The translations under genes were made by a program, and so were the position numbers. From Bacteroidales bacterium (GTDB lineage Bacteria > Bacteroidota > Bacteroidia > Bacteroidales > JACABE01): a stretch of DNA of 64,000 bases. Positions 1 to 16,444 of the stretch are shown one piece after another. How positions within the stretch are numbered: position 1 is the stretch's first letter; each line of letters begins with the position of its first letter. The stretch spans positions 50 through 64,049 of the forward strand of contig JAHEYQ010000019.1 in the NCBI GenBank assembly GCA_023251515.1, in the 5' to 3' direction. The notes below the pieces were generated by a model that made no database searches, was not told the DNA's origin, and saw nothing but the letters and a program-made list of their open reading frames with translations.

Positions 1-80
1 TGCAGAGCACAATTCCCATTTGGGAATAGACCTTAGAAACGTTGCAGAGCACAATTCCCATTTGGGAATAGGCATTAGAA
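1..80. repeat. 42-bp tandem repeat (2 copies visible, probably truncated by the window edge) with internal palindrome
   Basis: TGCAGAGCACAATTCCCATTTGGGAATAG at 1-29 and 43-71; internal ATTCCCA-T-TTGGGAAT near-palindrome. Confidence 0.85.
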
Positions 81-187
81 AGTAGATTTTGTTAACCTAT
101 ATTATGATTATATAATAAAATATTTATTGCAAAAGCAAGCTTAAAAATAATTATAAATGCAAATAATTATAAAGCTTAAAAAGCAAA

Positions 188-216: not shown

Positions 217-281
217 AATAATCATCTTACTGCTTATCAAAATTAATTATTTATTTCCATTAGTGTCCGACAAAAATATGT

Positions 282-760: not shown

Positions 761-1423
761 TCAGAATAATTTAAAATCTTCTTTCCTGAACAAACTTAAT
801 TTAATACCAAGCATAAATTGCCTGCTATAGGTTTTATAATCTTGCAAACAAGTGTTTATTATACCTTGATTATAGCGTGCTTCAATGGCAATAAATTTAT
901 TTAGCTTATACGATATTTGCAAAACACCACTCAAATCATAATCTTTTAAATCGTGATAATCATTTTGAATTAAAGTGTCTTTTTGAAAACTAAATCTATA
1001 ATCTTCACCCTTATTGCTTAATAGAATTGAATATTGAAGCCCCAATCCTATGCTAATCTTTTTGAAATTATACTGATATAAAAGAGGAATACTTATATAT
1101 TCCTGTTTCCTGTTGTTTTTAAGTGCATATGTAGTTGCACCTTCATATGCTTCATCGTATATATTTAATTCCCACAAACAATTTATTTTGTTATAAAGTA
1201 ATCCTGTTTCTATTGATGATTTACCAAAAATATTCATTTTTACATATACACCAGTCATATAACCTAATTTCATTTTGTTATAAAAATGGTCAACATACCT
1301 TCTGGGCTGCCTGTTATCGGATATAGTTCCGAAACCGCCAAAACCATTTACGCCTATCTCTACTTGCGAGTACAAAATTTCTGTACAAAATAATGACAAT
1401 ATTACAATAATGATTTTTTTCAT
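761..1423 (-). CDS. Outer membrane beta-barrel (porin/PorT-like) protein
   Basis: Signal peptide, amphipathic strands (SIETGLLY, YISIPLL, IEARYNQG), C-terminal Phe; ATG at 1423 preferred over TTG at 1429. Confidence 0.75.
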   Translation of the reverse strand: MKKIIIVILSLFCTEILYSQVEIGVNGFGGFGTISDNRQPRRYVDHFYNKMKLGYMTGVYVKMNIFGKSSIETGLLYNKINCLWELNIYDEAYEGATTYALKNNRKQEYISIPLLYQYNFKKISIGLGLQYSILLSNKGEDYRFSFQKDTLIQNDYHDLKDYDLSGVLQISYKLNKFIAIEARYNQGIINTCLQDYKTYSRQFMLGIKLSLFRKEDFKLF

Positions 1424-1444
1424 TTTCAATTGCTTTAAATATGT

Positions 1445-2326
1445 TTATTTTTTCTTTGTAATAATACTTGCTTTAAAATCATTTCCGCTTATTTTGCGGG
1501 TTACTGTTTTATATATATTCTTGTCGAGGTACATTTCAATAAATGCCAGATCGGGTGCATAATAAAAACTACCTCCTTTTTTTAAGGATTGCAGAATAGC
1601 CATATAGGTTTTGGCGTAAGCAATATAGTTTCCGTCGTTGCGCAGATTGTGATGTATAAAATGATTTGAAAATCCCAGATTGCTGATAATGCATCCCCAT
1701 TTATTAATACCATAATCAAATTCGAGCCAATCGGAGTTTGTCAGGTTTGCATCGGCAAAAGTAAAGCGATCTATACCATAAGCTTCTATATCCTGATTAC
1801 TTAAAAACTTAACCAGATTTCCCTGTTTGCCGCATCCTATATCCAAAACGGGTTGCTTTATCTTTTCCAGGTCAATTCCCAGAACCTCTATCTGCAATTC
1901 GGGACTGTATTCCGAACAGGCAATGGCTTCAATCTGATAATTACTGCCCGAATAGATTTTTTCGGCAAACGGATTGCATTTCCTGAGCCAGCTTTGCAAT
2001 TGCTGATAATGATTCTCTGATATTTCTGCTATGGGTATTTTCCCTGCTCTGATTTTATTAAACAAATCTGCATATATTTTCCTCAATTGGCTTTTCGATT
2101 GCTTATTGAACGAATAATACTGATTTACTCTGCAAAACTCTTCGAGCGATTTGGCTAAAGTATAATCTATCAATATGTTTTCGGCATCTTTATCAAGCTG
2201 ATTGATACCCGAAATGGCATCAATTGTTTCTTTAATAAATACAAATAATCCTTCCTTATCGGCAAATATATTCTTGCTTCTGTTAGATTCTATCTGTTTA
2301 TCAATATTCTTTTTTATTTTATCCAT
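1445..2326 (-). CDS. Class I SAM-dependent methyltransferase domain protein
   Basis: VLDIGCGKQG motif I followed by YGID. Confidence 0.75.
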   Translation of the reverse strand: MDKIKKNIDKQIESNRSKNIFADKEGLFVFIKETIDAISGINQLDKDAENILIDYTLAKSLEEFCRVNQYYSFNKQSKSQLRKIYADLFNKIRAGKIPIAEISENHYQQLQSWLRKCNPFAEKIYSGSNYQIEAIACSEYSPELQIEVLGIDLEKIKQPVLDIGCGKQGNLVKFLSNQDIEAYGIDRFTFADANLTNSDWLEFDYGINKWGCIISNLGFSNHFIHHNLRNDGNYIAYAKTYMAILQSLKKGGSFYYAPDLAFIEMYLDKNIYKTVTRKISGNDFKASIITKKK

Positions 2327-2380
2327 TTTTCTATTGCTATTTTTCTGAGCTTTAATTTCGATTTTTTACTATTACTTTTC

Positions 2381-2415
2381 TTCTCTCTGCAAATTTAATT
2401 GTTTTTCTACTCCGG
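2381..2415 (-). repeat. Promoter-containing intergenic repeat copy 1
   Basis: + strand CTGCAAATTTAATTGTTTTTCTACTCCGG (2387-2415), 28/29 identical to 8945-8973; TAAATTTG -7 element on minus strand. Confidence 0.8.
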
Positions 2416-2481
2416 TCTCTCATTATATAAAACTATTGAAATAATGATAATTGTGTATTAGTTATAATTCAATGCAAAATG

Positions 2482-3423
2482 TTATCTCGGTCCCATAAAT
2501 CTATCTCCGTTAAAATGTATCATATGATCAGGTACTTCCATAAGCCAAACCTCTGTTTCCCATGCAATATTATTGGAATGTTTTTTAAACTCTGTCATAT
2601 CAGGAAATGCTGTTACATATACTTTGCCCATTTTACATTCTGTCAAAAATGCTTCAAGTTCTAAAAGTCGCTTTGGAGAAACAGGACCATGCGAAGTTAC
2701 TGCTTCTATCAAAAACAACCAACCTCTGTTTGAATCGAATATAACTACATCCGGCAGTTTACTATGTTGATCTATTGGAATACCTAAATCTTTTAATCCT
2801 TGCTCATCAACATATAAGTCCTTTTTTGCAGTATCGCCCATATAAAGCAATAATCCCCCATTTGCAAATCGAGGAGCAAACTGTTCAATTATTGCTGCCT
2901 GAACTTCATTGTGCTTACCAGCTGAAAGTTTTATTGTTTTTCCATCCTGAAGTTTAACAGGAATTTGGTTTAATTCTCTTTCTTTCAAATATACTTCAGA
3001 TAGTTTTCCAACTTCTGCTAAAAAATGGCTTAGTGCTTTTTTCCATGTTTTTGTTTTATATGATTTTATTACTTCTAAAGCTTCGTCTGTCAATGCATAA
3101 TGTGCTTTTGGGCTGTTGACCGGAAGTTTTATATCATCAGGATTGTAATCAACTATTCTGGCTTGTACAAATTGATGTAAAACCTGTCTTCTGAATGTTT
3201 CTCTTGTATTTGGAGCATACGTTTTTCCGTAATACTCATTTACAAAATTCATAATACCATTTGAAACACCCAAACTATTTTTTGTTGAGTTTATCCATTT
3301 ATCTTTTTCTTTAATATTACATACAGCTAATAATGTTAAAGCTGCCATTTCATTATATTGTGCTGGTGGTAATCCCAGAGCTTTTAAAATCTCCTGTGCT
3401 TCTTCTATTTTACTCATGTTCAT
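2482..3423 (-). CDS. BsuBI/PstI family type II restriction endonuclease
   Basis: YAPNTRETFRRQVLHQF, LSAGKHN, FAPRFA, KLPDVV..LIEAVTSHGPV, IAWETEVW, HMIHFNG motifs typical of the family. Confidence 0.93.
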   Translation of the reverse strand: MNMSKIEEAQEILKALGLPPAQYNEMAALTLLAVCNIKEKDKWINSTKNSLGVSNGIMNFVNEYYGKTYAPNTRETFRRQVLHQFVQARIVDYNPDDIKLPVNSPKAHYALTDEALEVIKSYKTKTWKKALSHFLAEVGKLSEVYLKERELNQIPVKLQDGKTIKLSAGKHNEVQAAIIEQFAPRFANGGLLLYMGDTAKKDLYVDEQGLKDLGIPIDQHSKLPDVVIFDSNRGWLFLIEAVTSHGPVSPKRLLELEAFLTECKMGKVYVTAFPDMTEFKKHSNNIAWETEVWLMEVPDHMIHFNGDRFMGPR

Positions 3424-5017
3424 TTAGTATTAACTCTAGCCCAAACAATTCATTAACCAGATAATTTACATTGCTTACTGAAAAGTCATTTGAGAGTATT
3501 ATTTTGTTTCCTATTTTTTTAAGTTCATTTATTGGAGGAAAAAGCATTTCCCTTAACTCAGTTGCACTTACATTTACATTTCCATTAAATATTCTGAAGT
3601 AAGTATCAAAAAGCTCACTATTTAATAATGCACATAATCCAACTGTTTCGCTTCGGTCCATATGTCCTCTTTTTCTGTACAGATAATTAACCTTGTTTTC
3701 AACACCAATTACGTTTGATTGATAATAGTTACAAAAATATGGAGCTGCTATCAATCTACTTTTATCGTCTTTGGTACTAAATCTTCTTAAAAATATATAG
3801 TTTTTGTTGGGAATCAACAACGATTTTGTACTTTCTTCAATCCTGATATATTGTCCTTTATCCTTAAATTGCTTTGGCCATTCCAGTATCATTTTGTTTA
3901 CATTGTGTAACCAAAACAATGGAGCAAGAAAAACACTTCCATTCTCATAATTGTTTTGTATAAAATTTTCAGCACGAAAAGACACAACTGGTCCAGTGGA
4001 AATAGAAATATCATAATCTATTAATCGGCAATTCCAGGTTGAAATCAGGCTGAGTATTTTTTCTTCTTTTCCGTTTGTTGGCAAATGAAGTATTATTTCT
4101 TTCGATTTCAGACTTATTAATTCCTCGGTTTTAAAACTGTTTATACTTGGATTAAATATATCTTTAATACCCCCGCTTGAAGAAACGATAACCTCTTTTT
4201 GAGAATCTATCTTTTCACGTATAGCTTTGATGATTACTGTTTCCTGAAGTACATTATCGCGGTCGAATGTCTCTTTTCTTGAATTAAATAAATGAATTTT
4301 GTGAACCTGAACTGTATTAAAAAAAAGTTCTCTGAATGCTTTAAAATAATTTCCTGAAGCAAAACTTCTTGGAGTAATAAAAATCATTTCTCCACCTTCG
4401 TATAGCAATTTTGCTGATATACCCATAAATAAAGAATAGATATTTGGTTGTCCGCTAACTAATCTTTGGGCTGCTATTGTTCTTTTGTCGTCTTTTGAAA
4501 GTTTAAAATATGGTGGATTTGATATAATTATATCAAATTTGTTGCTTACAATTTCCTCTGTTTCAAATAGAGATAATTCGCGGCTATCATTCAGCGTATG
4601 GGCATTTTCTAATATAAAATCCTTAGTATGTAAAATATATTCGAAGTTAATTCCTTTACTTTTAAGCCATTTTTTTAAATAAATTAATGATTCCTGAGTA
4701 AAAGTAATAATTTCTGAATCTGTTTCATATACTTCCAGTATTATATTGTCAATACCATCATTCTTTTCAACAATATATTCGATCAACGAACATGATAAAA
4801 TGGCAGTTCCGCATCCTGGATCTAATATTCTGATTGAAGATTTTGTATTGTTACAAAATGATGCCATTAATTTAGCTATTGTAGTTGGGGTAAAGAATTG
4901 TCCATTATCTTTTTTATGCTTTAAACTTACCTGTTTTGCATAAACTATACCCAAGTTATCAGCACATTCGCTTGGCAGTTCAAATTCATTATGAGCAAAA
5001 TGCAATTTATCAATCAT
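3410..5017 (-). CDS. Cognate N6-adenine DNA methyltransferase (BsuBI/PstI-like, gamma-type)
   Basis: GQFFTP, ILDPGCGTAIL (motif I), IISNPPY (motif IV), ITPRSF, VNVSATELR; overlaps REase start by 14 nt. Confidence 0.92.
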   Translation of the reverse strand: MIDKLHFAHNEFELPSECADNLGIVYAKQVSLKHKKDNGQFFTPTTIAKLMASFCNNTKSSIRILDPGCGTAILSCSLIEYIVEKNDGIDNIILEVYETDSEIITFTQESLIYLKKWLKSKGINFEYILHTKDFILENAHTLNDSRELSLFETEEIVSNKFDIIISNPPYFKLSKDDKRTIAAQRLVSGQPNIYSLFMGISAKLLYEGGEMIFITPRSFASGNYFKAFRELFFNTVQVHKIHLFNSRKETFDRDNVLQETVIIKAIREKIDSQKEVIVSSSGGIKDIFNPSINSFKTEELISLKSKEIILHLPTNGKEEKILSLISTWNCRLIDYDISISTGPVVSFRAENFIQNNYENGSVFLAPLFWLHNVNKMILEWPKQFKDKGQYIRIEESTKSLLIPNKNYIFLRRFSTKDDKSRLIAAPYFCNYYQSNVIGVENKVNYLYRKRGHMDRSETVGLCALLNSELFDTYFRIFNGNVNVSATELREMLFPPINELKKIGNKIILSNDFSVSNVNYLVNELFGLELILNEHE

Positions 5018-5125
5018 AAGTACAAAGATAATTAATTATTCGTATTCTTCTATTTCATGCTTTGCAAATTGAAAATAAATTTTGATTTAATCTTCTTTCA
5101 GCCAAAGTTTTTTTTTGTGCTTTCC

Positions 5126-5205
5126 TTTTCCCCTTGGGCTAAAGCTGTGTAACAGTTAATGGAGCAAAATTTAATTATTTATTCTTCTCTTGTAAATCTT
5201 AAGCT
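5126..5205 (-). repeat. Promoter-containing intergenic repeat copy 2 (apparently split by a 28-bp insert at 5137-5164)
   Basis: TTTTCCCCTTG [28 nt] CAAAATTTAATTATTTATTCTTCTC; right part resembles copies at 5861 and 8095. Confidence 0.6.
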
Positions 5206-5223
5206 ATATTAGGATATGATGAT

Positions 5224-5766
5224 TTAATTGATTTTCATGAAAACCGTTAAGGTATTTTCAAGATTCATATTGTCGTTTGTTTTAGTGTTAACTTTAAACG
5301 TATAATCAGTTTCTTCAAATTCTGATAAATTAATAAATTCATTTGTAAACCTGATTTCAACAGCTCCCCATTTCTTTTCAATATGTAGTTTAAGCTCTTC
5401 AAAATCTGAGAAATTTGTACCGGCAGTAATTAGAATTCCATTATATTTAAAATCTTTGTTGCATGAAATAGAAAATCCGGATTCTGAAACTTCATTCTCA
5501 AATGTTTCGGAACAACTTGTAGCATATGTACTTTGTATTAAACCAAAGTTATTATGCAATGACGATGTTTTTTGTTCTAATTGCCAAATTATATAAAATT
5601 CTCCTTTTATGGTATCTGTTTTATTTTTGGGGTTATAGTAGTCAGTATAAGCTCCTATTTCTCCTTTTCCTATTATTTTATAACTTTCATGGCAACAACT
5701 TTGAATAAACAAAGATATCGAAAAAATTGAAAAATATATTATTAATAGTTTCCTGATTATCCTCAT
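5224..5766 (-). CDS. Hypothetical lipoprotein
   Basis: 180-aa ORF; hydrophobic leader ending IQSC (lipobox-like). Confidence 0.65.
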   Translation of the reverse strand: MRIIRKLLIIYFSIFSISLFIQSCCHESYKIIGKGEIGAYTDYYNPKNKTDTIKGEFYIIWQLEQKTSSLHNNFGLIQSTYATSCSETFENEVSESGFSISCNKDFKYNGILITAGTNFSDFEELKLHIEKKWGAVEIRFTNEFINLSEFEETDYTFKVNTKTNDNMNLENTLTVFMKIN

Positions 5767-5851
5767 ATTATAAATATTAGGCTTTTTGTTCTAATTGTTA
5801 TTTAAATTCAATTCCTTAATCAAATATTTGCTTTTTAATAGCCTTTTTTGC

Positions 5852-5896
5852 TTGTTTTCCCCCTGCAAATTTAATTATTTATTCCTCTCCTCCAAA
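5852..5896 (-). repeat. Promoter-containing intergenic repeat copy 3 (TTTG-N19-TAAATTTG)
   Basis: 5852-5880 identical (29/29) to 7413-7441; 5861-5891 is 30/31 identical to 8095-8125. Confidence 0.85.
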
Positions 5897-6828
5897 AAAG
5901 CTTGTATATCATTAATCCATTCGTCTTTATATTTGCACAGGTAGTTTTCGTGTCCTGCTTCCTGATAAATTTTCAATTGTTTCTTAGCTGCCAGATTATT
6001 AAAAATAAGGTCGATTTCTTCTCTGCTTACTTTTTCGTCTTTTGCACCATAAAGTAAAAGGCTGGGACAATTTATTTCTTTAGCATATTCAGTAGGATTG
6101 TGCCCGAATGCCCAAAAGCCGTTTTGAAGTCCGCCCCAGAAAACCAAAAGGCCTGCCATCGGAAATGCGGGTGCATTCATGGTTCTGAATCTTGCACAAA
6201 CAGTCTTATACATCGAGCCAAAAGGACATTCAATAATTATTCCATCTGGATTTATTTTATAGTCGCTTATTGCTTTCATTATTGCAACTGAACCCATCGA
6301 AGTCCCGAATAAGTAAAGTTTCGATTCTCCTTTTTTGCGAAGGTAGTCGTAACAGCTTTTTACCTCTTGGGCTTCCCTGAATCCGATTGTGGTTTGCTTT
6401 CCTTCCGAACCTCCCGAACCCATAAAATCAACCAGAAAGGTATTGTAACCAAGCTTACGAAATACTTCAGATTTATCAAGCATTGAAGCTTTGCTGCCAC
6501 TATAACCGTGAAATATTACAACAGTTCCTTTTGGGTTTTCAGCCTTAATACTCCAGCATTCTATTTCGCGGTTGCTTTTAAGTTTGATTGTTTCAAAATT
6601 CGTTGACGGTAGAATTTTGTTTTCCGGTCTGGGATTACTGACTCCGAATACTAAAGTCTTTATTTTCTGCCCCGTTGATAGTTTTTTAGGATCTTTAGTT
6701 TTTTCTATATTGCTGTCAGTAAAGTGAGTAAACCTATATGAATGGAATATGGCAACAATATTCATAAAAACAAAAATTGCCATTAATGTCCACAAACTGC
6801 GTTTTATATATTTACTTTTTATTGTCAA
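5875..6828 (-). CDS. Alpha/beta hydrolase (membrane-anchored)
   Basis: N-terminal TM, FHGY oxyanion motif, GTSMG nucleophile elbow, GAKDEKV Asp, EAGH His. Confidence 0.9.
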   Translation of the reverse strand: MTIKSKYIKRSLWTLMAIFVFMNIVAIFHSYRFTHFTDSNIEKTKDPKKLSTGQKIKTLVFGVSNPRPENKILPSTNFETIKLKSNREIECWSIKAENPKGTVVIFHGYSGSKASMLDKSEVFRKLGYNTFLVDFMGSGGSEGKQTTIGFREAQEVKSCYDYLRKKGESKLYLFGTSMGSVAIMKAISDYKINPDGIIIECPFGSMYKTVCARFRTMNAPAFPMAGLLVFWGGLQNGFWAFGHNPTEYAKEINCPSLLLYGAKDEKVSREEIDLIFNNLAAKKQLKIYQEAGHENYLCKYKDEWINDIQAFLEERNK

Positions 6829-7334
6829 ATCTTTAATATTAGCTCACCGTTTATAAAATTAAAAACTATTAAATGTTTTTTCTTAATTTTATCAGTTTCT
6901 TGAAGATATTTTTGCCTTCCTCTATAGTCATAATATTCGCAATCAATTAATTTTGCTGTGTACCAATCGGCAAAAATCTTCCCGTTTATCAGCTTTGGCT
7001 TGTATCCGTTCTTTTCAAAATAACTAATAACTGTATTGTAATCAATTTCTGTATCCGTATTACACTTTAGTATCTTTTGTAAGAGTAATTTATTATCTTT
7101 TATTTCCCAGATTGCCTGATAACCTCTCCAGCAATTTGTAGAAACAAACAATCCAGTATCAAATGGATTCATATTTTCCTTGAAATTTAGCTGTTCAATT
7201 GGAAATGATTGTAAATAAAAACTGTCTTTGCCAATTATTAATAAATCAGGAGTTTGTTCTGTGGCAAATAAATCCAGTTTAAATATAACTGTAAATGCAA
7301 TTAAAAGCAGCAATGATAATATCTTTGTTTTCAT
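6825..7334 (-). CDS. Secreted hypothetical protein (STxCWRGY motif)
   Basis: Signal peptide; TEQTPD, STNCWRGYQAIWEI, FADWY motifs; 4-nt overlap with the next gene. Confidence 0.7.
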   Translation of the reverse strand: MKTKILSLLLLIAFTVIFKLDLFATEQTPDLLIIGKDSFYLQSFPIEQLNFKENMNPFDTGLFVSTNCWRGYQAIWEIKDNKLLLQKILKCNTDTEIDYNTVISYFEKNGYKPKLINGKIFADWYTAKLIDCEYYDYRGRQKYLQETDKIKKKHLIVFNFINGELILKI

Positions 7335-7412
7335 TTTTGATTCATTTTTTTGTTATGCCTAGCATTCATTTTGTTTTTATTTCATTCTGATATGATCCTT
7401 TTTTTACAATGT

Positions 7413-7477
7413 TTGTTTTCCCCCTGCAAATTTAATTATTTTTCTACTTTGGCAACTTCTTTCTGAATAGCTGAATA
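7413..7477 (-). repeat. Promoter-containing intergenic repeat copy 4
   Basis: TTGTTTTCCCCCTGCAAATTTAATTATTTTTCTACTTTGGCAACTTCTTTCTGAATAGCTG; TTG-N18-TAAATTTG on minus strand. Confidence 0.85.
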
Positions 7478-7501
7478 TAAATAGGTGAGGATGTCGTTTT
7501 A

Positions 7502-8011
7502 TTAATCTTGCTTTCTCAATATTTTATGGATAGATTTTTTTACATTATCACTCAAATTGCCGGTATAACAGTCGTCAGTCATTAACTTTATTTCGCTTGA
7601 AAGTTCGGGATATTTCTTCGAAATAGCATACATTATCTTAAAGGCATTAAACCGAAGCGATGAGTTTTTATTGATATTTGTCCAGATATTGATGCAAAGG
7701 TCGAATAAACGCCCTTCATATGCTGTGCTTATAGCCATTCGTTGCAATATCATCAGCAGTTCCCGCTGTTGATTATCGTTTCTGTAAGCTAAAATTTCTA
7801 TAATTTTTTTAATGTATTTATGTATTCTCTTATCATTGTTTGCCATACAACTCCACAACAACCATGCCGCCCGCCACGAATAAGGCTGTTTGTCCGAAAC
7901 CGATAATTCAACAAGCTCCTCAAAATCTTCCGGATGCAATTCAATATAAGCTATCAGATCGCTTTTGTAAGAATTCAAAAGTAAATATTCTAAGCTTGTT
8001 TTCTGATGCAT
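7502..8011 (-). CDS. Hypothetical alpha-helical (HEAT/ARM-like) protein
   Basis: 169-aa ORF with WRAAWLL and repeated amphipathic helices. Confidence 0.6.
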   Translation of the reverse strand: MHQKTSLEYLLLNSYKSDLIAYIELHPEDFEELVELSVSDKQPYSWRAAWLLWSCMANNDKRIHKYIKKIIEILAYRNDNQQRELLMILQRMAISTAYEGRLFDLCINIWTNINKNSSLRFNAFKIMYAISKKYPELSSEIKLMTDDCYTGNLSDNVKKSIHKILRKQD

Positions 8012-8092
8012 AGTAATTACTAATATTTTTTTTACTTGACTTTAAACCAAATTATTAATTGATAATAAAGCTTGTAGCTGTTATTTTCATTA

Positions 8093-8138
8093 TTCCCTGC
8101 AAATTTAATTATTTATTCTTCTCCTGCATTCTTTAGCT
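8093..8138 (-). repeat. Promoter-containing intergenic repeat copy 5
   Basis: TTCCCTGCAAATTTAATTATTTATTCTTCTCCTG. Confidence 0.85.
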
Positions 8139-8176
8139 TTCTTTGTTTTTTACAGGAAATATAATGGTTGTGTTTA

Positions 8177-8875
8177 TTAATTATCATAAATTGGTTGATA
8201 AACAAAATTAAGCTTTGTTTTATATGTTATAGGAGGCAATATAACTGTATTGCTGATATTATCAAACTTAATTGTCAGTTTATTTACATCCATTGACCAC
8301 TCGTTAAAATCATAGCTAACTATTAAAGTATCCGCAGGTTTTATTTTATAAAATGAAGGAATTGGAATGTTATTTATCTCATTTCGTTTTGTATTTACGG
8401 TTCTGTCTTGCTTAATATAAGAAAATCTGTGTGGATCAAGCATAGAAAGATTTGAAGGACTTAATACTTTGTGTTTATTTTCAAAGTTTACTTTTGTCAA
8501 ATCAATTAATATTGTATCTGTGCTCATATTTATAAATCTGAAATTTACAAAAAAAAGTATATCACCCTTACTTCCATTATTTAAAAATGGCCAGACTAAT
8601 AACATCGGATTGGGAATTACCGGCACAATAGGTGGCCCGATTAAAATAACCCAGTTGGGTTTAGGACAAGGCCATATTGAAACACTTAAATTATTCTTTT
8701 TTATACCATAAACCGGTGTTTTAGTTCCAATACTCCAATATGGATGTGGTTTTTCTGTTATTTTCCATTCCGATTCTCCTTTTTGTTTTCGTATTCCAAC
8801 ACCTCTAAAGTGTGAACAACTAACAAGTGTTAGAGATAAGATAATTGATAATATAAATTTATAATACCTGAACAT
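8177..8875 (-). CDS. Hypothetical lipoprotein
   Basis: 232-aa ORF, leader ending LVSC. Confidence 0.65.
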   Translation of the reverse strand: MFRYYKFILSIILSLTLVSCSHFRGVGIRKQKGESEWKITEKPHPYWSIGTKTPVYGIKKNNLSVSIWPCPKPNWVILIGPPIVPVIPNPMLLVWPFLNNGSKGDILFFVNFRFINMSTDTILIDLTKVNFENKHKVLSPSNLSMLDPHRFSYIKQDRTVNTKRNEINNIPIPSFYKIKPADTLIVSYDFNEWSMDVNKLTIKFDNISNTVILPPITYKTKLNFVYQPIYDN

Positions 8876-8930
8876 AAATAAAATTTTTACTTTTTCGCTA
8901 ACTACTTTTTTATTAGTTAATTACTTCTTT

Positions 8931-8999
8931 TTGTTTATTTCTCCCTGCAAATTTAATTATTTTTCTACTCCGGCAATTTCTTCCTGCATACTGATTACT
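8931..8999 (-). repeat. Promoter-containing intergenic repeat copy 6
   Basis: CCCTGCAAATTTAATTATTTTTCTACTCCGGCAATTTCTTCCTGCATACTG; TTG-N18-TAAATTTG on minus strand. Confidence 0.85.
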
Positions 9000-9011
9000 A
9001 ACACATATAGT

Positions 9012-9632
9012 TTATTTTTCTAATTCTGCAATTAACTTATCTGTTTTCTTAGAAACTTTGTTCGTAAATTCCTGATCCCCATTAGTAATTATAGCAAGTT
9101 CATTACACAATGTAATAATTTTGTTGATTGCTGTTCCTTTTTCAGGAGACCAGAATTCTGCAATTATTAAATTTCCATTTGAATTTCTTACAACAAACAT
9201 ATATGTTATTCCATCTAATCCAAAACTGGATTTCTCTTTATTAATTTTAGAAATTGCCAACTCAAATAATTTTACTATTTTGTTAGATAAATCTGATGAA
9301 ATGTAAATTGATTTTTCTTCAATATTTACATTTTTCTTATTCGATATAATCTTTTTAAATGAATAACAATGAGTAATTAGTTTGGGTTTATCTAAGGAAT
9401 CTTTTTCGATTGAGACTAAACAGCCACCTTGTCCCATTGTGTAAATCGGGATAAATCGGGCTATGGGTTTTTTACTCAGATTTTTTAATAATGTAGGTGC
9501 TATTGTATCATAAAATCTGTTGAGTGATTTGTTATATTGAAGAAAATCTGATGACAGATTAAAATTCTCTTGCCCATTGATATTGGCAACAAAAAGGAAA
9601 GTATTAATTAGGATTGAAATGATTATTTTCAT
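9012..9632 (-). CDS. Secreted hypothetical protein
   Basis: Signal peptide; GLDGITYMF...WSP motif. Confidence 0.65.
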   Translation of the reverse strand: MKIIISILINTFLFVANINGQENFNLSSDFLQYNKSLNRFYDTIAPTLLKNLSKKPIARFIPIYTMGQGGCLVSIEKDSLDKPKLITHCYSFKKIISNKKNVNIEEKSIYISSDLSNKIVKLFELAISKINKEKSSFGLDGITYMFVVRNSNGNLIIAEFWSPEKGTAINKIITLCNELAIITNGDQEFTNKVSKKTDKLIAELEK

Positions 9633-9685
9633 TTTCTTAGTAAATTTATTGTTTTTGCTTTTGTCTTTTAATTTATTACTTCCAT

Positions 9686-9753
9686 TTATTCCCCTTGCAA
9701 ATTTAATTATTTATTTCAATCCGCCAACCTCTCCCTCTTCATAGCTAATTACT
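9686..9753 (-). repeat. Promoter-containing intergenic repeat copy 7
   Basis: CCCCTTGCAAATTTAATTATTTATTTCAATCCGCCAAC..CATAGCTAATTACT; TTG-N19-TAAATTTG on minus strand. Confidence 0.75.
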
Positions 9754-9889
9754 GGTCGAAAGTTACATTACTGGAAATTGCATTTCAATTGCTTTTCTGC
9801 TTATATTTCCCAATCGTTTGTTTTAAAATACTGATTTATCAAAAGCTATTCCACACTTAATTTATCAGAAATACCTGATAATAGAAGTT

Positions 9890-10366
9890 TTAAATTATAT
9901 TATCAATTTTTAAATTCCTATAATGTTTTGTAGTTATAAATTCTTTTAAAACATTTTCAGAAAGCATATCTATTGTAATTTGTTTACGATAAAGCCAACG
10001 ATAAATATTTGCACTATCTCTAAATTTTAATGGTGTGTTTATTAGTTTTACTAATTTCTGAATTTCAGGAGCTTCTTTAGCAAATTCAATTTCACTATCT
10101 TTATTAATCCGTTCAGCTTGTTCAAGTTTTTCTTCATAAGTTGCTTTTTCCATTAGCATAATTCCAATTTGTCCTTCTTCATTTCTTTGTATATGATATT
10201 CATTTAAACTTGAACTTTTTCTTGATTCAATGCCCTTTTTTCTGATTCTTTCAATCTCAGATATAAACTCTTCTTCAGTAACCATTAGTCTCCAAAGTTC
10301 TCCCCTTTCTTCTAAATCCTTTTTCTTTAGATGATAGTCGTTTAAATATTCTTCATTTGATTTCAT
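9890..10366 (-). CDS. Hypothetical protein
   Basis: 158-aa ATG-initiated ORF, co-oriented with upstream genes. Confidence 0.6.
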   Translation of the reverse strand: MKSNEEYLNDYHLKKKDLEERGELWRLMVTEEEFISEIERIRKKGIESRKSSSLNEYHIQRNEEGQIGIMLMEKATYEEKLEQAERINKDSEIEFAKEAPEIQKLVKLINTPLKFRDSANIYRWLYRKQITIDMLSENVLKEFITTKHYRNLKIDNII

Positions 10367-10412
10367 TTCTATATAATTAAGTTGTAAATACTGAAATTGT
10401 ATTGTAAATTTA

Positions 10413-11261
10413 TTATTGTCTCACCATTGTTTCAAGCATTCTTTCATATCCATTATTCATTAATTCATCCCAAACTTTTTGTAATGATATTATTTGTATT
10501 TCTGGATCTGTTTTCAAGATATTATTACAAAATAGAAGTTTTATATCACTTTTTGAATTCTTAAGTTTTTTTATTTTTAATTCAATTGTTTTTTTGTCTG
10601 ATGTGTCTGTTACTTGTGCAGCAAGACATTTTTCATTTATTGTAATACCGAGTATATCAATATTTGCTAAATTGCCTCCAGTAAGTAATAATTGATATTT
10701 GATTTGATTTTCTTTAGCTAAATCTGAACGCAACCACTCAACACATAACAATTCAACCAATTTTTCAGATATATTGCTAAGTGCTAATTCTAATTTATCT
10801 AAATTACCAAAATGAAAAAGATGTCTAACTACATTAACTCTTTTTCTAATTGGACTTATTGTTACTTGACTGGGTATAATTGAAGAAAAGATAGGATAAT
10901 CTGAAAGATTAATTGATTTTACAGTTTCTTTTTCTAATTGAAATATTTTGTAATTTTCATCTTTTGAAAAGTTAAAAAACGCTGTTCCTTTCTTTATTCT
11001 GCCTACTTTTGCAATAGGATTATTTTTATAAGTTGCAAGAATTAAAACATCATTTTCAATTATATTGTTTTGTAAACTAATCCATCGGTCAATATATTGT
11101 ATTTTTTTCTTTGATTTATTTTCTTTAATATAATTTTCTAAAACTTCTTTTTCATCATCTTGATCAACTAATATTGCAATTTGATTAAGTCTGTTGAAAT
11201 CCTCAATATATGTTTCATCATACTGAAAATTAATTCTTATTAAATAAACTTTTTCTTCCAT
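10413..11261 (-). CDS. Putative Mrr-like PD-(D/E)xK restriction endonuclease domain protein
   Basis: C-terminal ISEKLVELLCVEWL...GGNLANIDILG...AAQV resembles the Mrr catalytic E...D...Q pattern; separate N-terminal domain. Confidence 0.55.
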   Translation of the reverse strand: MEEKVYLIRINFQYDETYIEDFNRLNQIAILVDQDDEKEVLENYIKENKSKKKIQYIDRWISLQNNIIENDVLILATYKNNPIAKVGRIKKGTAFFNFSKDENYKIFQLEKETVKSINLSDYPIFSSIIPSQVTISPIRKRVNVVRHLFHFGNLDKLELALSNISEKLVELLCVEWLRSDLAKENQIKYQLLLTGGNLANIDILGITINEKCLAAQVTDTSDKKTIELKIKKLKNSKSDIKLLFCNNILKTDPEIQIISLQKVWDELMNNGYERMLETMVRQ

Positions 11262-11283
11262 ATTCTTTGTATTTTATACTTGT

Positions 11284-11964
11284 TTATAATGTGTTTGCTA
11301 ACATAATATTTTTCTTTTCAATAGCTTTGTTATTCGCAACTTCAATAAGCAAATTATCAAACTGTCTATTGGTTATTTTGATATTATAATGATTTTCAAT
11401 TTGCATTTTTAAGCTTAAGCATTTACAAAAGAATTTTGCATATTCTGTATCAATGTTATCTTTATTTATAATTTCTTTCATATTTTCAGGTACATCCTTA
11501 ATAAATACTTTTAAAGCTGATAATGCTCGACTGTCATAAATAAAAAACATTTCAGGTAAATGAAAATGAAGGTATTTCGAACTAAATGACCGTTTGGTAA
11601 GTTTAGTTATTTTCTTTATTTCAGAAGTCAAGTAATAATGAGCATTTAATACGCTATTAATGTTTTCGTAATCTATTACAATATGATTATTCAGATTTTC
11701 AAGTATTTCATCAAGTTTTGAATTTCTAAAAGTATTTGTGACTTTTTCTAAATAAAAAATATCATTAATATCTTCTTTATCTGTATTTGGTCTTCTTTCA
11801 ATAGCTGCCGCATAAATTCTCCCAATAAATAAAACCTTTGTCAGGATAATATCATCTTCATTATGTTTAAAGTTATTTCTACATAAATCATAAAGGATTT
11901 TGTTGCTAAAATCCCATGGACTTTTTTCTATTGCTTTATTAAGTTGTTGTTTTGTTGGTATCAT
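11284..11964 (-). CDS. Putative HhH-GPD-like (DNA glycosylase-like) protein
   Basis: RSFSSKYLHFHLPEMFFIYDSRA resembles the helix-hairpin-helix/catalytic Asp segment; YAKF and RQFDNLL downstream. Confidence 0.5.
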   Translation of the reverse strand: MIPTKQQLNKAIEKSPWDFSNKILYDLCRNNFKHNEDDIILTKVLFIGRIYAAAIERRPNTDKEDINDIFYLEKVTNTFRNSKLDEILENLNNHIVIDYENINSVLNAHYYLTSEIKKITKLTKRSFSSKYLHFHLPEMFFIYDSRALSALKVFIKDVPENMKEIINKDNIDTEYAKFFCKCLSLKMQIENHYNIKITNRQFDNLLIEVANNKAIEKKNIMLANTL

Positions 11965-12076
11965 AAAGTATATACTAATTTGTTTCTCACTTCACTTTTG
12001 AAGTCAGCTTTTCAATTTTAAGTTAAATAGCTTAACCTTTTGTTTTTGTTACAAATATACAAATTCCTTTAAACAT

Positions 12077-12115
12077 AAAACCCCGCCACCGGAAAATTTC
12101 CGGCAGCAGGGTTTT
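12077..12115 (-). terminator. Intrinsic terminator of the 12126-12827 gene
   Basis: Hairpin pairs fully (with G-U wobbles) only on the minus strand and ends in a U tract. Confidence 0.7.
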
Positions 12116-12125
12116 GCTTGTCAGC

Positions 12126-12827
12126 TTATACGATAGGATTATTATCAGATGTTGAATCCGTATTTTCTCCATCATCTTTTTTCTTTTTCCAGCCGCCTAT
12201 TTTGCGGGCATTGGTATATTCTATATAAAACTCCGGATATTTTGCTTTGTATTTCAGCATCATTTTATCCAGTTGTTCTTTAAGTATTTTGGTAATTTCG
12301 GCAAATGCCGCTTCCATTTTCTCTTTGCTCGATTTGCTCATACGGCGAGCCCCCTGAGGCTTGTCGAGCAGTTCGAGACAAATGTCAATTACCACTTTGA
12401 TTTCCTCAATTTCTTCTTCAGTAGTAAAATCAGGAATCAGTTTGTCTTTAATTTTTGTCAAATCTGTATAAACTTTCATGCAGTTGTTACAGATTTCTTT
12501 TTCTATACCCCTATTCAACGAAGTTTTGGTATAGTTAAACTGTGTTTTCAACTCATTATCATTAACAGAACTGGCATAAGCCATCCCGTTTCCCGAACCA
12601 ATCAGAGTAGCATCAAGCATTTTTTCTATTGACTGATCCTTTTTGGCAGTAGTACTCTTACCACTACCCTGTTGCTGATCGTGTTCATTTACAACTTTGT
12701 GCTGTTCTTCTAATCTGTTGAAACTCTTTTTGAAAGCTACGGAACCTGTCCATATGTCTTTCCATTTAAGCAACACTTCTTTTACGTTGCTTACCATTTT
12801 GTCTTTGTGGAAATTCTTTTTATCCAT
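12126..12827 (-). CDS. Alpha-helical hypothetical protein with C-terminal FYxxYxxARxI motif
   Basis: 233-aa ORF with its own terminator. Confidence 0.7.
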   Translation of the reverse strand: MDKKNFHKDKMVSNVKEVLLKWKDIWTGSVAFKKSFNRLEEQHKVVNEHDQQQGSGKSTTAKKDQSIEKMLDATLIGSGNGMAYASSVNDNELKTQFNYTKTSLNRGIEKEICNNCMKVYTDLTKIKDKLIPDFTTEEEIEEIKVVIDICLELLDKPQGARRMSKSSKEKMEAAFAEITKILKEQLDKMMLKYKAKYPEFYIEYTNARKIGGWKKKKDDGENTDSTSDNNPIV

Positions 12828-13379
12828 AAGATTACGGTTTTAAAAATTTATAATTATTTATTATTTATCACCTGTTGTGTTTTCTGTTTCAGAATTAATC
12901 ACATGCAGGTTTCTCATTAATTTATACTGATATTTAGCAGATTTGCAAAGCAAAGCTGTCAAATAACATTTATACCGAACCGATTTTTAGTTTGAATAAA
13001 TTCATAAACCTGATTTTTATCCGGTATATCCGTTTGTTTCTTTTTTTACCATTACTTTCACAAGCAAAAAAAGATTGAGGCTGTAAAATTATAAAAAAAT
13101 TTTACACAACAAATAACATTTTAAAATATTTTTAAAAAAAATATTTTTTCTAAATTTTTAGTTTGGAATGCAAATAGAGCAATACATATTTTTAGCCTCA
13201 AAAATTATTTATATCGACTCTTTATTTTACCAAAACAGCTGATTTCAGATACTCATAAGAGCATCGTTATTCATATATGCTTATAATATCCTTATATACT
13301 TTTCTTACAAAATCAAATGGCTTTCGAAGCAAAGCCTCCCCTATTCTGTCTGTTTTCTTCCATTTATCGTCAATATCTG

Positions 13380-13780
13380 GTTTTGCTTTTGCGATATTTA
13401 ACTTTTAATTTACTTTCTTCGGTTTTGCATTTTCCTTTTCCAGTTTGCTATTTACTTTTTATGGTTTGCTGTTTGCTTTCTCTTGTTTTTTATTCTCTTT
13501 ATCCTGTTTTTTATTTACGTTTTCCTGTTTGCTGTTTGCTTTCTTTTGTTTTCTATTTTCTTTTTCTTATTTGCCTTTTGCTATCTCTTGTTTGCTATTT
13601 ACTTTGCATTGTTTTTTATTATCTTTCTTTGGTTTTCTATTTACATTTTTGAGTTCCACATTTACTTTCTTAAATTCTCTGTTTACATTCTTTAGTTCCG
13701 CATTTACCTTTAGCAGATTGCTGTTTACTCGCAATATCATTATATTTACTTTAAGCAAATATATATTTTCACACTGCAAA
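13380..13780 (-). repeat. Degenerate 21-nt periodic tract (heptad-coding; in-frame stops, possible pseudogene)
   Basis: Minus frame reads KVNAELK-NVNREFK-KVNVELK-NVNRKPK, then continues through TAA stops as ENRKQKK-ANSKQEN-VNKKQDK. Confidence 0.7.
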
Positions 13781-13915
13781 TATCAGTTTTAACACAAAAG
13801 AAATCAATTTACATTAAACATCCGGCTATTTTCGATATAATAAACTCATTTAATCTGTAATTCAATTATTCATTTAATCAGTTACTCCTTAAATCAGTTA
13901 TTCAATTAATCTTTT

Positions 13916-14159
13916 AGCCGCATAGCGGCGATATGATGGTAAAAAACACAAAGCAAAATCATTGAAGCCGCATAGCGGCGACATATTTTGTTTTTCTTAC
14001 AGTATAATCTTTATAAACCAGTTTTGCTGTCTGTTTTTATTAGCTTAATCTGCTGTTTTTAAGTAGTACTCAGATATAAATTAGTTTAATTGTCGCCGCT
14101 ATGCGGCTTTATGCTCATCTAACAGCTTTTTATTACCATAATTTCGCCGCCATGCGGCT
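13916..14159. mobile_element. Non-autonomous four-REP nested inverted-repeat element (REPIN/MITE-like)
   Basis: AGCCGCATAGCGGCGA at 13916 and 13966; inverted copies ending 14108 and 14159; no transposase inside. Confidence 0.7.
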
Positions 14160-14386
14160 CTAATTACATCAACTCATCAATTCCCGAATGCTTTGCTTTG
14201 CTATTTTTACTAAAATAACTGAATTACAAATTCAATTATTACTCCAAACTGAATTACAAATTCAGCTTAGCATTATAGGTAGTAATCTATTTAAAGTATC
14301 TCATTTTTACTATTAATCAGTAACTCTGTTAATCTCTTATTCAATTAATCTATTAATCAGTTATTCAATTAATCATTTACTCTTCT

Positions 14387-14932
14387 CTATCTCCTCACAA
14401 ACTGCTTGCGATAAGCTATTCTTTCTTTCATGATTTCGTAATAATCAACAGCTTCTAAATCCAGACGCTCAGCATATTTTTGCAGAAACAACTTTGCCAT
14501 TTCATAATCAGCAAACTCATTCAGGACAATACTTTGTTTGGTCTCCGAAATCAGCAATACATCAAATGATTTGGTAATGTAGTCAGTAGAATTGCATTTG
14601 CTGTTCATAATCTGCGATTCGTAGGTATATTTCAGTATCAGCTTGTTGTAATCAGCCAGCTTATGCCATTTGCCTGTTTTGACAATAAAAAAATCAGTAT
14701 AAGGTTTTAATTGTTTATTCTCAAAATCAATCAGCACTCCCCTTGCCGACAACAGCAAAACAGTTCCGGGAATTACAGAAATTATTCCGCATATTATCAT
14801 CGGCAAAGTATAGCTTTCGCCAATCTGAGCACCCGTAACGATGAGTATAATACCTATGATAATAATCACCAATCCGATAAACGAAAGCGCCCCTTTAAAT
14901 GTAAATCCCTGCGATATTTTTTCTGTATTCAT
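14387..14932 (-). CDS. Hypothetical membrane protein
   Basis: Two N-terminal TM helices followed by a soluble domain. Confidence 0.7.
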   Translation of the reverse strand: MNTEKISQGFTFKGALSFIGLVIIIIGIILIVTGAQIGESYTLPMIICGIISVIPGTVLLLSARGVLIDFENKQLKPYTDFFIVKTGKWHKLADYNKLILKYTYESQIMNSKCNSTDYITKSFDVLLISETKQSIVLNEFADYEMAKLFLQKYAERLDLEAVDYYEIMKERIAYRKQFVRR

Positions 14933-15164
14933 TTTTCTGATGCGAATAAACCTGTTCTGACAGTAACATTACAGCAATATATTCCGCCACAACAACCATT
15001 TAGAACAAACGTTATTTTACCCCGCAAATTTATAAATAATAAATTGAATCATTTCATTTTTCTCTTTAATCAATACTATTATTAGCGTGAGTTATGGATT
15101 AACTTTCCATTTGAAAAAAGCAAACATTAAAAAACGCTTACCGGAACTTAGCTTCGAAGCAATG

Positions 15165-15380
15165 ACTGACCTCAATGAATTTACGCCATAAAACAAGCAA
15201 TTAAAAATAAGCGATGGCATGTGAGCAATCCACGAGTTTCGGCGACAAAAAAATATAAAAAGCACTACTCTTAATTCCGAAACGGCTTGGATTGCAGCAG
15301 GCATTTTTAATTGCGTAGTTTTACAGTAAATTCTTTGCAGTCTTGAACTTTTGGTTCTTTTGGTTCAAGCCAAAAGAACA
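15165..15380. other. Structured intergenic element (long interrupted hairpin plus pseudoknot); candidate ncRNA or repeat element
   Basis: Nested pairings GAATTTAC/GTAAATTC, GCAATTAAAAAT/ATTTTTAATTGC, GCAATCCA/TGGATTGC, GTTTCGG/CCGAAAC; stem 15354-63/15370-79 whose loop is complementary to 15342-48. Confidence 0.6.
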
Positions 15381-15515
15381 ATAAAATAATGCTTTTGAAG
15401 ATTTTACAAAGTTATTTAATCCAAAACTCACGTAAATAAAAGGTGTTTATTAAAGGGATTTAATTTCATACTCTTATAATTCTTATATTCGTATATACTT
15501 CGGTTTATACACCTT

Positions 15516-15703: not shown

Positions 15704-16444
15704 CTATTTCACATTCGCACACAAAAATTCTCTGTTCATGCGGGCAATATTCGATACCGAAATACCTTTGGGGCATTCGGCTTCGCAGGCATAAGTATTT
15801 GTACAATTGCCAAAACCAAGTTCATCCATCTTGGCTACCATTGCTTTCACTCTGTCTTTGGCTTCAATTTTGCCCTGAGGTAACAAAGCAAACTGCGATA
15901 CTTTTGCAGCTACAAACAACATTGCCGAAGCATTTTTGCAGGCAGCCACACAGGCGCCACAACCAATACATGCAGCCGCATCCATAGCCAGTTCGGCATC
16001 CTCGCGGTTTACAGGTATCGAGTTGGCATCGGGTACACCACCGGTAGTAACCGACACATAGCCACCTGCCTGTATAATCTGATCAAATGCATTGCGGTTG
16101 ATCATCAAATCTTTAATTACCGGAAAAGCTTTCGAACGCCATGGTTCAATGGTAATGGTGTCGCCATCTTTAAACTTACGCATATGCAACTGGCAGGTTG
16201 TTACCTCATCATCGGGTCCGTGCGGACGACCATTGATGTATAAGCTGCACATTCCGCAAATGCCCTCACGGCAATCGTGGTCAAAATTAATTGGCAATTG
16301 CACTTTGTCTATCAACGACTCATTTAATATGTCGAGCATTTCTAAGAATGAACAATCAGCTGATATATTTTGAACTTTATATGTTTCGAATTTTCCTTTT
16401 GCTTTCGGACTTTCCTGTCTCCAGATTTCTAATGTTAAATTCAT
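15704..16444 (-). CDS. sdhB: Succinate dehydrogenase/fumarate reductase iron-sulfur subunit
   Basis: [32 protein letters not shown] Fe-S motifs. Confidence 0.97.

Follow-up and report, generated by a model that had tools for sequence, protein, structure and literature searches.

Here, we describe an array of unrelated, co-oriented genes at 761-11964 of a 64,000-nucleotide (nt) stretch of DNA, called the window throughout, in which seven transcription units are each headed by a copy of one repeat of promoter type, the module. The window corresponds to positions 50-64049 of contig C38 of its source genome (G000; 4.33 Mb in 104 contigs, GC content 31.6%). The host is an uncultured environmental member of the Bacteroidota; parts of the stretch are present in 20 public sequencing runs from 11 studies of groundwater, wastewater and biofilm. 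Its placement in the phylum is based on the promoter type, on a type IX secretion system (T9SS) sorting domain encoded in the window and on the taxa matched in the ESM Atlas. Our preferred reading, to which we give a probability of about 45%, is that general recombination copies and shuffles the promoter module of a hypervariable array of accessory genes. Three observations lead us there: searches turned up neither a dedicated enzyme nor a site structure, the module copies are mosaic, and the breakpoints seen in relatives do not fall at one point. Comparisons drew on a sister species (G012; genome 89% complete), 12 genomes of the same genus, 17 of the family, 48 more distant genomes, and 151 or 401 genomes of the order.

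The array comprises 13 minus-strand open reading frames (ORFs) encoding proteins of 158-535 amino acids (aa), 9 of which are no longer than 300 aa. In an all-against-all BLASTP comparison, no two of the 13 were related at E < 0.05. The ORF list and this comparison bear out the initial annotation, which had described 13 co-oriented, unrelated genes falling into units separated by a repeat. Tandem duplication of paralogs was rejected, as no related pair exists among the 13 genes. Each module-headed unit holds one or two genes. The three genes furthest upstream, which had been taken for a further unit of this kind, turned out to have a different promoter. The units are as follows.

761-2326, minus strand: unit behind module P2387, with a 293-aa methyltransferase-like protein (1445-2326; likeness from weak matches) and an outer-membrane beta-barrel protein (761-1429; Pfam).
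2482-5017, minus strand: restriction-modification unit, with an Eco57I/N6-type methylase (3410-5017) overlapping a BsuBI/PstI-type endonuclease (2482-3423), both by Pfam.
5224-5766, minus strand: unit behind module P5863, a predicted lipoprotein of 180 aa without a family match.
5875-7334, minus strand: unit behind module P7424, with a secreted protein of 169 aa (6825-7334) and a membrane-anchored alpha/beta hydrolase (5875-6828).
7502-8011, minus strand: unit behind module P8097, a helical cytoplasmic protein of 169 aa; its family has no name but is widespread, occurring in 160 of the 401 genomes from the order.
8177-8875, minus strand: unit behind module P8945, a predicted lipoprotein of 232 aa without a family match.
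9012-9632, minus strand: unit behind module P9695, a secreted protein of 206 aa without a family match.
9890-11964, minus strand: three-gene operon (226, 282 and 158 aa; GC 0.24-0.26) without a family match, with its own promoter near 12040 and no module.

Four of these proteins (5224-5766, 6825-7334, 8177-8875 and 9012-9632) have signal or lipoprotein-type N termini and belong to no family. No terminators between units were found on the minus strand from 12081 to 216. The three-gene operon, which is kept at ~96% identity in one biofilm run (X5, below), gave a weak PADLOC match to PDC-S02 (E 3e-4, 282-aa protein) and a weak PUA-like match (158-aa protein), and could be a defense system.

The module, 45-70 nt long, lies on the minus strand (span 2387-9712); six of its copies are near-identical, another is decayed and a further one is weak. 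Its core, CTGCAAATTTAATTATTT, is exact at 5863, 7424, 8097 and 8945 and has one mismatch each at 2387 and 9695. When the core was searched with up to 3 mismatches, we obtained 6 matches against 1.50 expected, and none of 100 shuffled controls gave 6. The conserved block on the minus strand reads approximately TTGCCGGAGTAGAA(T)AAATAATTAAATTTGCAGGGGGAAAA; weaker likeness reaches an AGCT ~40 nt upstream of the -7 box, and the conserved flank extends to ~10 nt past the start site. The copies, with E values from a 60-nt nhmmer model built from the six good copies and scanned over the whole G000 genome, are listed here.

2375-2442, minus strand: module P2387, core at 2387-2404 with 1 mismatch, -7 box at 2397-2390, 63 nt before the ATG of 1445-2326; E 3e-8.
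5150-5215, minus strand: decayed module P5165, -7 box broken by an extra T (TAAATTTTG), ~150 nt upstream of the methylase gene; E 4.7.
5851-5918, minus strand: module P5863, heading the lipoprotein gene 5224-5766; E 1e-10.
7412-7479, minus strand: module P7424, 92 nt before the ATG of 6825-7334; E 4e-10.
8085-8152, minus strand: module P8097, 88 nt before the ATG of 7502-8011; E 6e-7.
8933-9000, minus strand: module P8945, 72 nt before the ATG of 8177-8875; E 2e-10.
9683-9750, minus strand: module P9695, 1 mismatch, 65 nt before the ATG of 9012-9632; E 6e-9.
226-275, minus strand: weak module-like sequence GAAATAAATAATTAATTTTG (core region 238-260), with no gene behind it and then a dispersed hairpin element.

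Of the seven copies originally reported, six were therefore confirmed, while the seventh, near 5165, is decayed. A possible eighth had been proposed near 238; there is such a sequence, but it is weak, lies amid dispersed repeats and precedes no gene. The identities given between copies (29/29, 28/29 and 30/31) were reproduced exactly.

Promoters of the Bacteroidota take the form TAnnTTTG, with TTTG near -33. The module follows this pattern, with TTG ~18-19 nt before a -7 box TAAATTTG, and reads as an ordinary housekeeping-sigma promoter of Bacteroidota type (-33 TTG, -7 TAAATTTG). Six units have the full predicted -33/-7 promoter, with the -7 box TAAATTTG 63-99 nt before the ATG. The general motif is frequent in this genome: in 1362 regions upstream of long ORFs, TAnnTTTG occurred 905 times in sense and 420 times in antisense orientation. 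In its AT-rich core, the module differs little from the promoter consensus of the genome at large. The copies also share G/C-rich stretches at positions where other promoters have ~10% G and ~10% C, and because these stretches are common to the copies at positions that are otherwise low in G and C, we attribute the copies to common descent and not to convergence.

The module proved private to two places, this locus and its counterpart in the sister species. The nhmmer model recovered the six copies at E values from 1e-10 to 6e-7, and the next best match in the 4.3-Mb genome had an E value of 0.065. All four exact matches of the 18-mer in G000, and six of its nine matches at up to one mismatch, fall within these 7.4 kb. 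A generic promoter or genome-wide regulon was accordingly rejected, since the six-copy model found no other match at E < 0.05 in the genome; this upholds the earlier description of the repeat as a promoter-type sequence distinct from a generic promoter. Nor did genome-wide scans find the extended motif equally common upstream of housekeeping genes. Among the 17 family genomes, clusters of the module at two mismatches occurred only on C38 and on contig C195 of G012. An exact 17-mer was absent from all 12 same-genus genomes and occurred once in 1 of the 48 more distant genomes. Wider searches likewise gave single matches: 62 by chance for a 19-mer in contigs of one genome per species, with no cluster; 13 for a 24-mer in metagenome contigs, 11 of which were one orthologous promoter of another organism; and 44 for a 17-mer in viral contigs, with no cluster.

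A second array of unrelated genes was not found among 8605 TAnnTTTG contexts compared all-against-all (127 families, the 14 largest of which were inspected). Each of these 14 families consisted of miniature elements, of tandem repeats or of the coding ends of paralogs (contigs C5 and C48). In one of them, at C5:857-14388, four tandem paralogs of ~1100 aa, sorted by the T9SS, have conserved C-terminal coding ends that mimic a repeated promoter.

These distributions bear on whether the repeat might be purely regulatory, with a local regulator binding the spacer and flanks and the gene turnover being ordinary island flux that has nothing to do with the repeat. Conservation does span -33 to +10 and ~25 nt further upstream, where regulators bind, and the module is conserved in two species with different cargo. 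However, no DNA-binding regulator was recognized in the island except for the endonuclease's own helix-turn-helix domain, and there is no copy elsewhere in the genome. The identical blocks lie at positions without known contact, the copies are mosaic, and variant breakpoints coincide with module and leader edges. We consider a regulatory explanation very unlikely.

The module copies are mosaics, a signature of recombination between copies. P5863 pairs with two different copies: on the start-site side, 5852-5880 is identical to 7413-7441 in P7424 (29/29), and in its upstream half it is nearly identical to P8097 (30/31). P7424 and P8945 are identical at 49 of 60 nt in an ungapped alignment (82%). 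One of the two copies in the sister species, module A, joins an upstream part of P7424/P8945 type to a spacer of P8097 type. We also examined the structure of the modules. Six 81-nt module strands folded as DNA gave z scores of 0.03 to 1.45, no better than shuffles; inverted repeats common to the copies, terminal inverted repeats and target duplications were not found; and the modules matched no known RNA family.

Evidence for turnover comes from the sister species, in which the conserved flanking gene sdhB is 93% identical to that of G000 at the nucleotide level. A 4.5-kb contig of G012 (C195) carries an ortholog of gene 1445-2326 (95% nucleotide and 97.5% aa identity) and two module copies (E 3e-8 and 2e-6), and it overlaps the contig that carries sdhB (C6) by an exact 55 nt. 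The gene order is thus sdhB; a 318-aa gene of the same superfamily as the gene at the head of the G000 array; a hairpin and promoter; module B with genes of 104 and 108 aa; module A with a shikimate-kinase-like gene; a Na/H exchanger; and the ortholog of 1445-2326, which is the only cargo common to both genomes. The 191-, 108- and 104-aa proteins of G012 have no match in G000. The module has thus persisted at one site, bounded by sdhB and the 1445-2326 ortholog, while the genes behind it have been exchanged. Unit-sized differences between relatives had been predicted, with breakpoints in the repeat; the sister species does have other genes with the same module at the same site, but a fixed crossover within the repeat was not seen.

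Several boundaries could be placed by this comparison. The leader of P5863 (5862-5805) is homologous to the leader of module B, so that ~60 nt are conserved in one lineage, and the likeness ends at …GAATTGAATT, window position 5805. In G012, no module precedes the ortholog of 1445-2326, whose likeness to the window begins 11 nt before the ATG. The promoter and leader that follow the G012 hairpin match contig C54 of G000 up to the ATG of a lipoprotein gene, which is missing there in G012.

The missing module in front of the 1445-2326 ortholog would suit an alternative in which the module itself is mobile, a small promoter element that inserts before pre-existing genes in the manner of promoter-carrying miniature elements or mobile promoters. 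So would the end of the hydrolase gene: the upstream part of P5863 encodes its last five codons and stop (5877-5875), as if the module had overwritten them, and its homologs (64% aa identity), which sit elsewhere in three same-genus genomes, end differently after a common …FL/FI. This hydrolase is the sole one of its kind in G000. The genome is rich in other miniature repeat elements, and promoter reuse before unrelated genes has been described (PMC3575422). That work, by Nijveen, Matus-Garcia and van Passel, defines putative mobile promoters by at least 80% identity over at least 50 nt, and concerns similar upstream sequences before nonhomologous genes with no known mobilization mechanism, as here. 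The P7424/P8945 pair (49/60 nt, 82%) satisfies this definition, while most other pairs fall below its length. Putative mobile promoters are mostly scattered pairs, however, whereas here six to seven co-oriented copies are clustered in 7.4 kb with genes turning over behind them. The same paper names Correia, ERIC and REPIN as promoter-bearing miniature elements (PMC3575422); these resemble the module as short repeats able to supply promoters to their neighbors but have terminal inverted repeats or hairpins and dispersed copies, and the module has neither. The module is confined to one locus and one orientation, while the genome's true dispersed elements occur on at least 20 contigs; it lacks terminal inverted repeats and target duplications; and it is the genes that differ between G000 and G012 while the modules persist. 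A self-mobile module is, in our view, quite unlikely.

We next compared strains, using Logan contigs of four runs, three from wastewater (X2, X3 and X4) and one from biofilm (X5), at a 90% likeness threshold. The joints come from short contigs. In the key ones, the shorter side measures 34 nt; those whose shorter side was under 30 nt (7340>14710 and 6822>10919 among them) were left out of account. One contig each in X3 and X4 follows the 1445-2326 leader up to 2385 and continues with seven other letters and then a 34-nt P7424-like piece. In X4 and X5, the P7424-like piece is joined on its far side to 5805. Read in the direction of the promoter, the variant form suggested by these joints runs along the P5863 leader to GAATTGAATT, passes immediately into another module and then reaches gene 1445-2326. 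It bridges 3.4 kb, and the lipoprotein gene, decayed module and restriction-modification pair of the window are absent from it. The strain comparison proposed at the outset thus yielded a structural difference with ends at a module edge and a leader end, albeit from short contigs with a 34-nt side. One position recurs among the breakpoints.

5805, minus strand: recurrent breakpoint at the end of the common leader …GAATTGAATT, from about where the window, module B of G012 and the metagenome contigs diverge.

After 5805, the G012 and metagenome forms both go on with AAGAA, and their breakpoint may be ~5 nt further on. Overall, breakpoint positions vary and include the upstream edge of the module, a point near the transcription start, the leader end, and positions at or near start codons. 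Loose ends were also seen in X4: the likeness of single contigs to the window ends at 7334 (the ATG of 6825-7334) or at 6801, and unlike sequence follows. Left of 7334, where one X4 contig has other sequence in place of gene 6825-7334, the 30 letters examined contain CAATTAAATTTG on the plus strand, a module-like -7 box in the opposite orientation. Depth was 0-1.7 over 2601-8450 in X5 and 0-1.6 over 3901-14300 in X2; these coverage holes, which we do not count as evidence, fit shorter arrays in those strains.

Under general recombination, the module copies would act as short portable homology. Exchange between copies would delete, duplicate and reshuffle units and would homogenize their promoters, and exchange with other strains of the lineage would import units that already have flanking modules. 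New genes would be placed behind a resident module by rare illegitimate joins at gene boundaries, and selection would retain those newcomers that are expressed. On this view, no dedicated recombinase would be needed. The predicted functional outcome is that each unit would be expressed on its own.

Several observations weigh against this reading. The identical blocks are short, 18 nt in four copies and at most 29 nt in one pair, so homologous recombination there would be inefficient. General recombination does not explain the first arrival of foreign genes behind the module, the three independent breakpoints at or within ~12 nt of a start codon, or the repeated use of the leader end at 5805. 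All copies are co-oriented at one locus, as a site-directed process would also give, and the array reaches the contig end, where a recombinase may lie just beyond window position 1. Finally, the metagenome evidence consists of short Logan contigs with a 34-nt shorter side, taken at a 90% threshold, and we infer from equal depth (8.69) that the two X4 joints lie on one contig.

An alternative is a dedicated capture system, similar to an integron or to the recombinase-associated acquired interbacterial defense (rAID-1) arrays of gut Bacteroidales (Ross et al., preprint 10.1101/471110; PMC12247911). A recombinase encoded elsewhere, or past the contig end, would act at a site inside or at the edge of the module, inserting and excising units, and each captured unit would arrive at a promoter or bring one along. 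Published accounts of rAID arrays describe the same architecture, with genes that are co-oriented, unrelated and mostly short and a conserved repeat between them (10.1101/471110, PMC12247911). Between the sister species, cargo is exchanged at one fixed place in the chromosome; the variant with two tandem modules and a ~58-nt leader between them resembles an empty slot; and the breakpoint after GAATTGAATT recurs. The hydrolase stop codon lies inside the module. Some integron cassette ORFs likewise end inside attC. The array, moreover, ends at a contig break.

We searched for recombination machinery. Contig C38 has no match to the tyrosine recombinase family PF00589. G000 has eight tyrosine-recombinase loci (two housekeeping Xer-type genes, an IS91-type pair, and phage- or island-type integrases), none of which is followed by short genes arrayed in the same orientation. 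For integron integrases, model TIGR02249 reached at best 93.2 bits, against a 265-bit cutoff, in G000 and G012. The Resolvase (serine recombinase) and IS110 families were found in neither genome, that of G012 being 89% complete, and an IS91 transposase was found in G000 but not in G012. Serine recombinases are treated as defense markers in PMC13552941. Housekeeping Xer-type enzymes are the only recombinase type found in both array-bearing genomes. The IS91-type pair, a tyrosine-recombinase-like gene and an IS91-type Y2 transposase, is alone on a 2441-nt contig of G000 (C75), probably a collapsed multi-copy insertion sequence, which was not found in G012.

These results do not favor dedicated capture. 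Besides the failure to find PF00589 on C38, an array-heading locus among the eight, an integron integrase (93 versus 265 bits), Resolvase or IS110 in either genome, or an IS91-type enzyme in G012, there is no hairpin (z 0.03 to 1.45), there are no common inverted repeats, breakpoints fall at several positions, and the module is in no other species searched. The initial annotation had proposed that the promoter is itself the recombination or target site of a gene-capture system; with no recombinase on the contig and no single crossover point, this was not sustained. Its suggestion that a tyrosine or serine recombinase or an IS110 or HUH enzyme might co-occur with the array found no support either, with no integron integrase, Resolvase or IS110 in the two genomes and with IS91 in one of them only. 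Its statement that the locus is not an integron held, as the integrase model stayed below its cutoff and no folded sites were found. We regard dedicated capture as unlikely. More doubtful still is the specific form in which the module or its edges are the attachment site of a capture system without a cis-encoded integrase, a recombinase acting in trans, possibly the housekeeping Xer type, inserting genes behind a resident promoter and leader. Were it true, the integron would have a counterpart that supplies promoters, and the locus might be the environmental relative that explains how rAID arrays are assembled.

In layout, the locus resembles rAID-1 arrays, but no recombinase heads it and no immunity family was recognized in its cargo. 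The likeness to the published descriptions lies in repetitive conserved intergenic motifs, strain-variable gene content, and an array of mostly short co-oriented genes (here 13, of which 9 are at most 300 aa). By the same accounts, a XerD-family tyrosine recombinase in the orientation of the array heads rAID arrays, whereas here the three-gene operon, a 233-aa all-alpha protein and then sdhB are found upstream. Their cargo is toxin-immunity genes, whereas no immunity family from Pfam, NCBIfam or PADLOC was found in the cargo proteins here, five of which have no family at all and may include remote immunity proteins. In rAID arrays, GC content is lower than in the genome or the recombinase; here it is 0.303 in the array, 0.306 in the rest of the window and 0.316 in the genome, which gives no clear skew of the region, with individual cargo genes at 0.24-0.365 and the sdh genes at 0.41-0.43. 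The host is environmental, not gut. To obtain a rAID array for comparison, we searched 151 genomes of the order and found SMI1_KNR4 in 9 of them; in the five contexts examined, no array headed by a recombinase was seen.

With integrons, the locus shares co-oriented, unrelated genes at one site, fast turnover and one ORF end inside the repeat. It differs in having no IntI on the contig and no attC-like folded site, although the array does run into the contig end, and in that each unit, some of them with two genes, has a putative promoter of its own in place of one Pc. Our literature search for an array of this kind found nothing closer than rAID-1 arrays and promoter reuse. The locus has a rAID-like outline in an environmental member of the Bacteroidota, without the recombinase, and its repeat can be read as a complete promoter and leader. 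PMC12247911 calls rAID biogenesis "an area of active research." The construction of rAID-type arrays is unsolved; at this locus, cargo varies among several strains and between two species. Should general recombination acting on a portable promoter suffice to build and reshuffle such arrays, it would offer a simple route to immediate, independent expression of acquired genes; if a recombinase is involved, the module edges point to its site. In either case, the locus is a compact test case for the spread of a promoter to unrelated genes.

The locus as a whole is a species-specific island downstream of the succinate dehydrogenase operon, of which sdhB/frdB forms the conserved flank.

15704-16444, minus strand: sdhB/frdB, conserved flank.
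12126-12827, minus strand: head gene, encoding an all-alpha protein of 233 aa from a multi-copy superfamily; the array of G012 likewise has a member at its head.

Just beyond the sdhB stop codon, DNA similarity to the same-genus genomes ends in all 12 cases. In two of these (G008 and G011), sdhB is followed directly by genes whose G000 orthologs lie on contig C77, and in a third (G003) the two are a few kb apart. This lineage has therefore gained, by insertion, the whole stretch that runs from sdhB to window position 1 or beyond.

A third paralog connects the head gene with the 318-aa gene of G012 (E ~1e-13), placing both in the same superfamily. Further members in G000 lie at C23:20062-20754, C69:31595-32287, C89:21529-22986, C67:13790-14725, C54:37049-38005 and C59:31469-32425. 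The superfamily consists of ~230-aa all-alpha proteins, with three longer members that have a C-terminal CarboxypepD_reg domain, and its members head variable or defense-like clusters as well as the arrays of both G000 and G012. The cluster headed by the C89 member holds a methylase, an ATPase, a nuclease-like protein and a candidate TIR-like protein, the last judged by eye from its N terminus. The possibility that the head gene is a hidden recombinase was unsupported: it has no Pfam family, and its AlphaFold model is all-alpha (pLDDT 77.8). A structure search gave 243 matches in the Protein Data Bank, none at E ≤ 0.001, and in the ESM Atlas only hypothetical Bacteroidota clusters.

Miniature elements are abundant across the island. 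Two adjacent ones at 243-760 occur on at least 20 contigs at 70-98% protein-level identity, and the ORFs 243-413 and 519-755 are such dispersed repeat elements, not genes. A dispersed hairpin element at 188-216 has very high summed depth in all four runs. The start of the contig is formed by a 42-nt tandem repeat with an internal palindrome (TTCCCATTTGGGAA; window 1-81, C38 1-130), which also occurs at the end of C8, at C67:40251-40840 and at C71:34267-34500 and breaks the assembly at this point. Contig C8, which carries the same repeat, has no recombinase, and its join to C38 is ambiguous. Downstream of sdhB, a 352-nt element at 15084-15435 is skipped by contigs of all four runs (X2-X5) and matches many places in all 12 same-genus genomes; its absence from the runs and its multiple matches together identify it as a recent miniature-element insertion in G000. 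Between the head gene and 14387-14932, a 21-nt tandem repeat of ~17 copies that are 60-75% alike (13367-13723) is flanked by dispersed short repeats.

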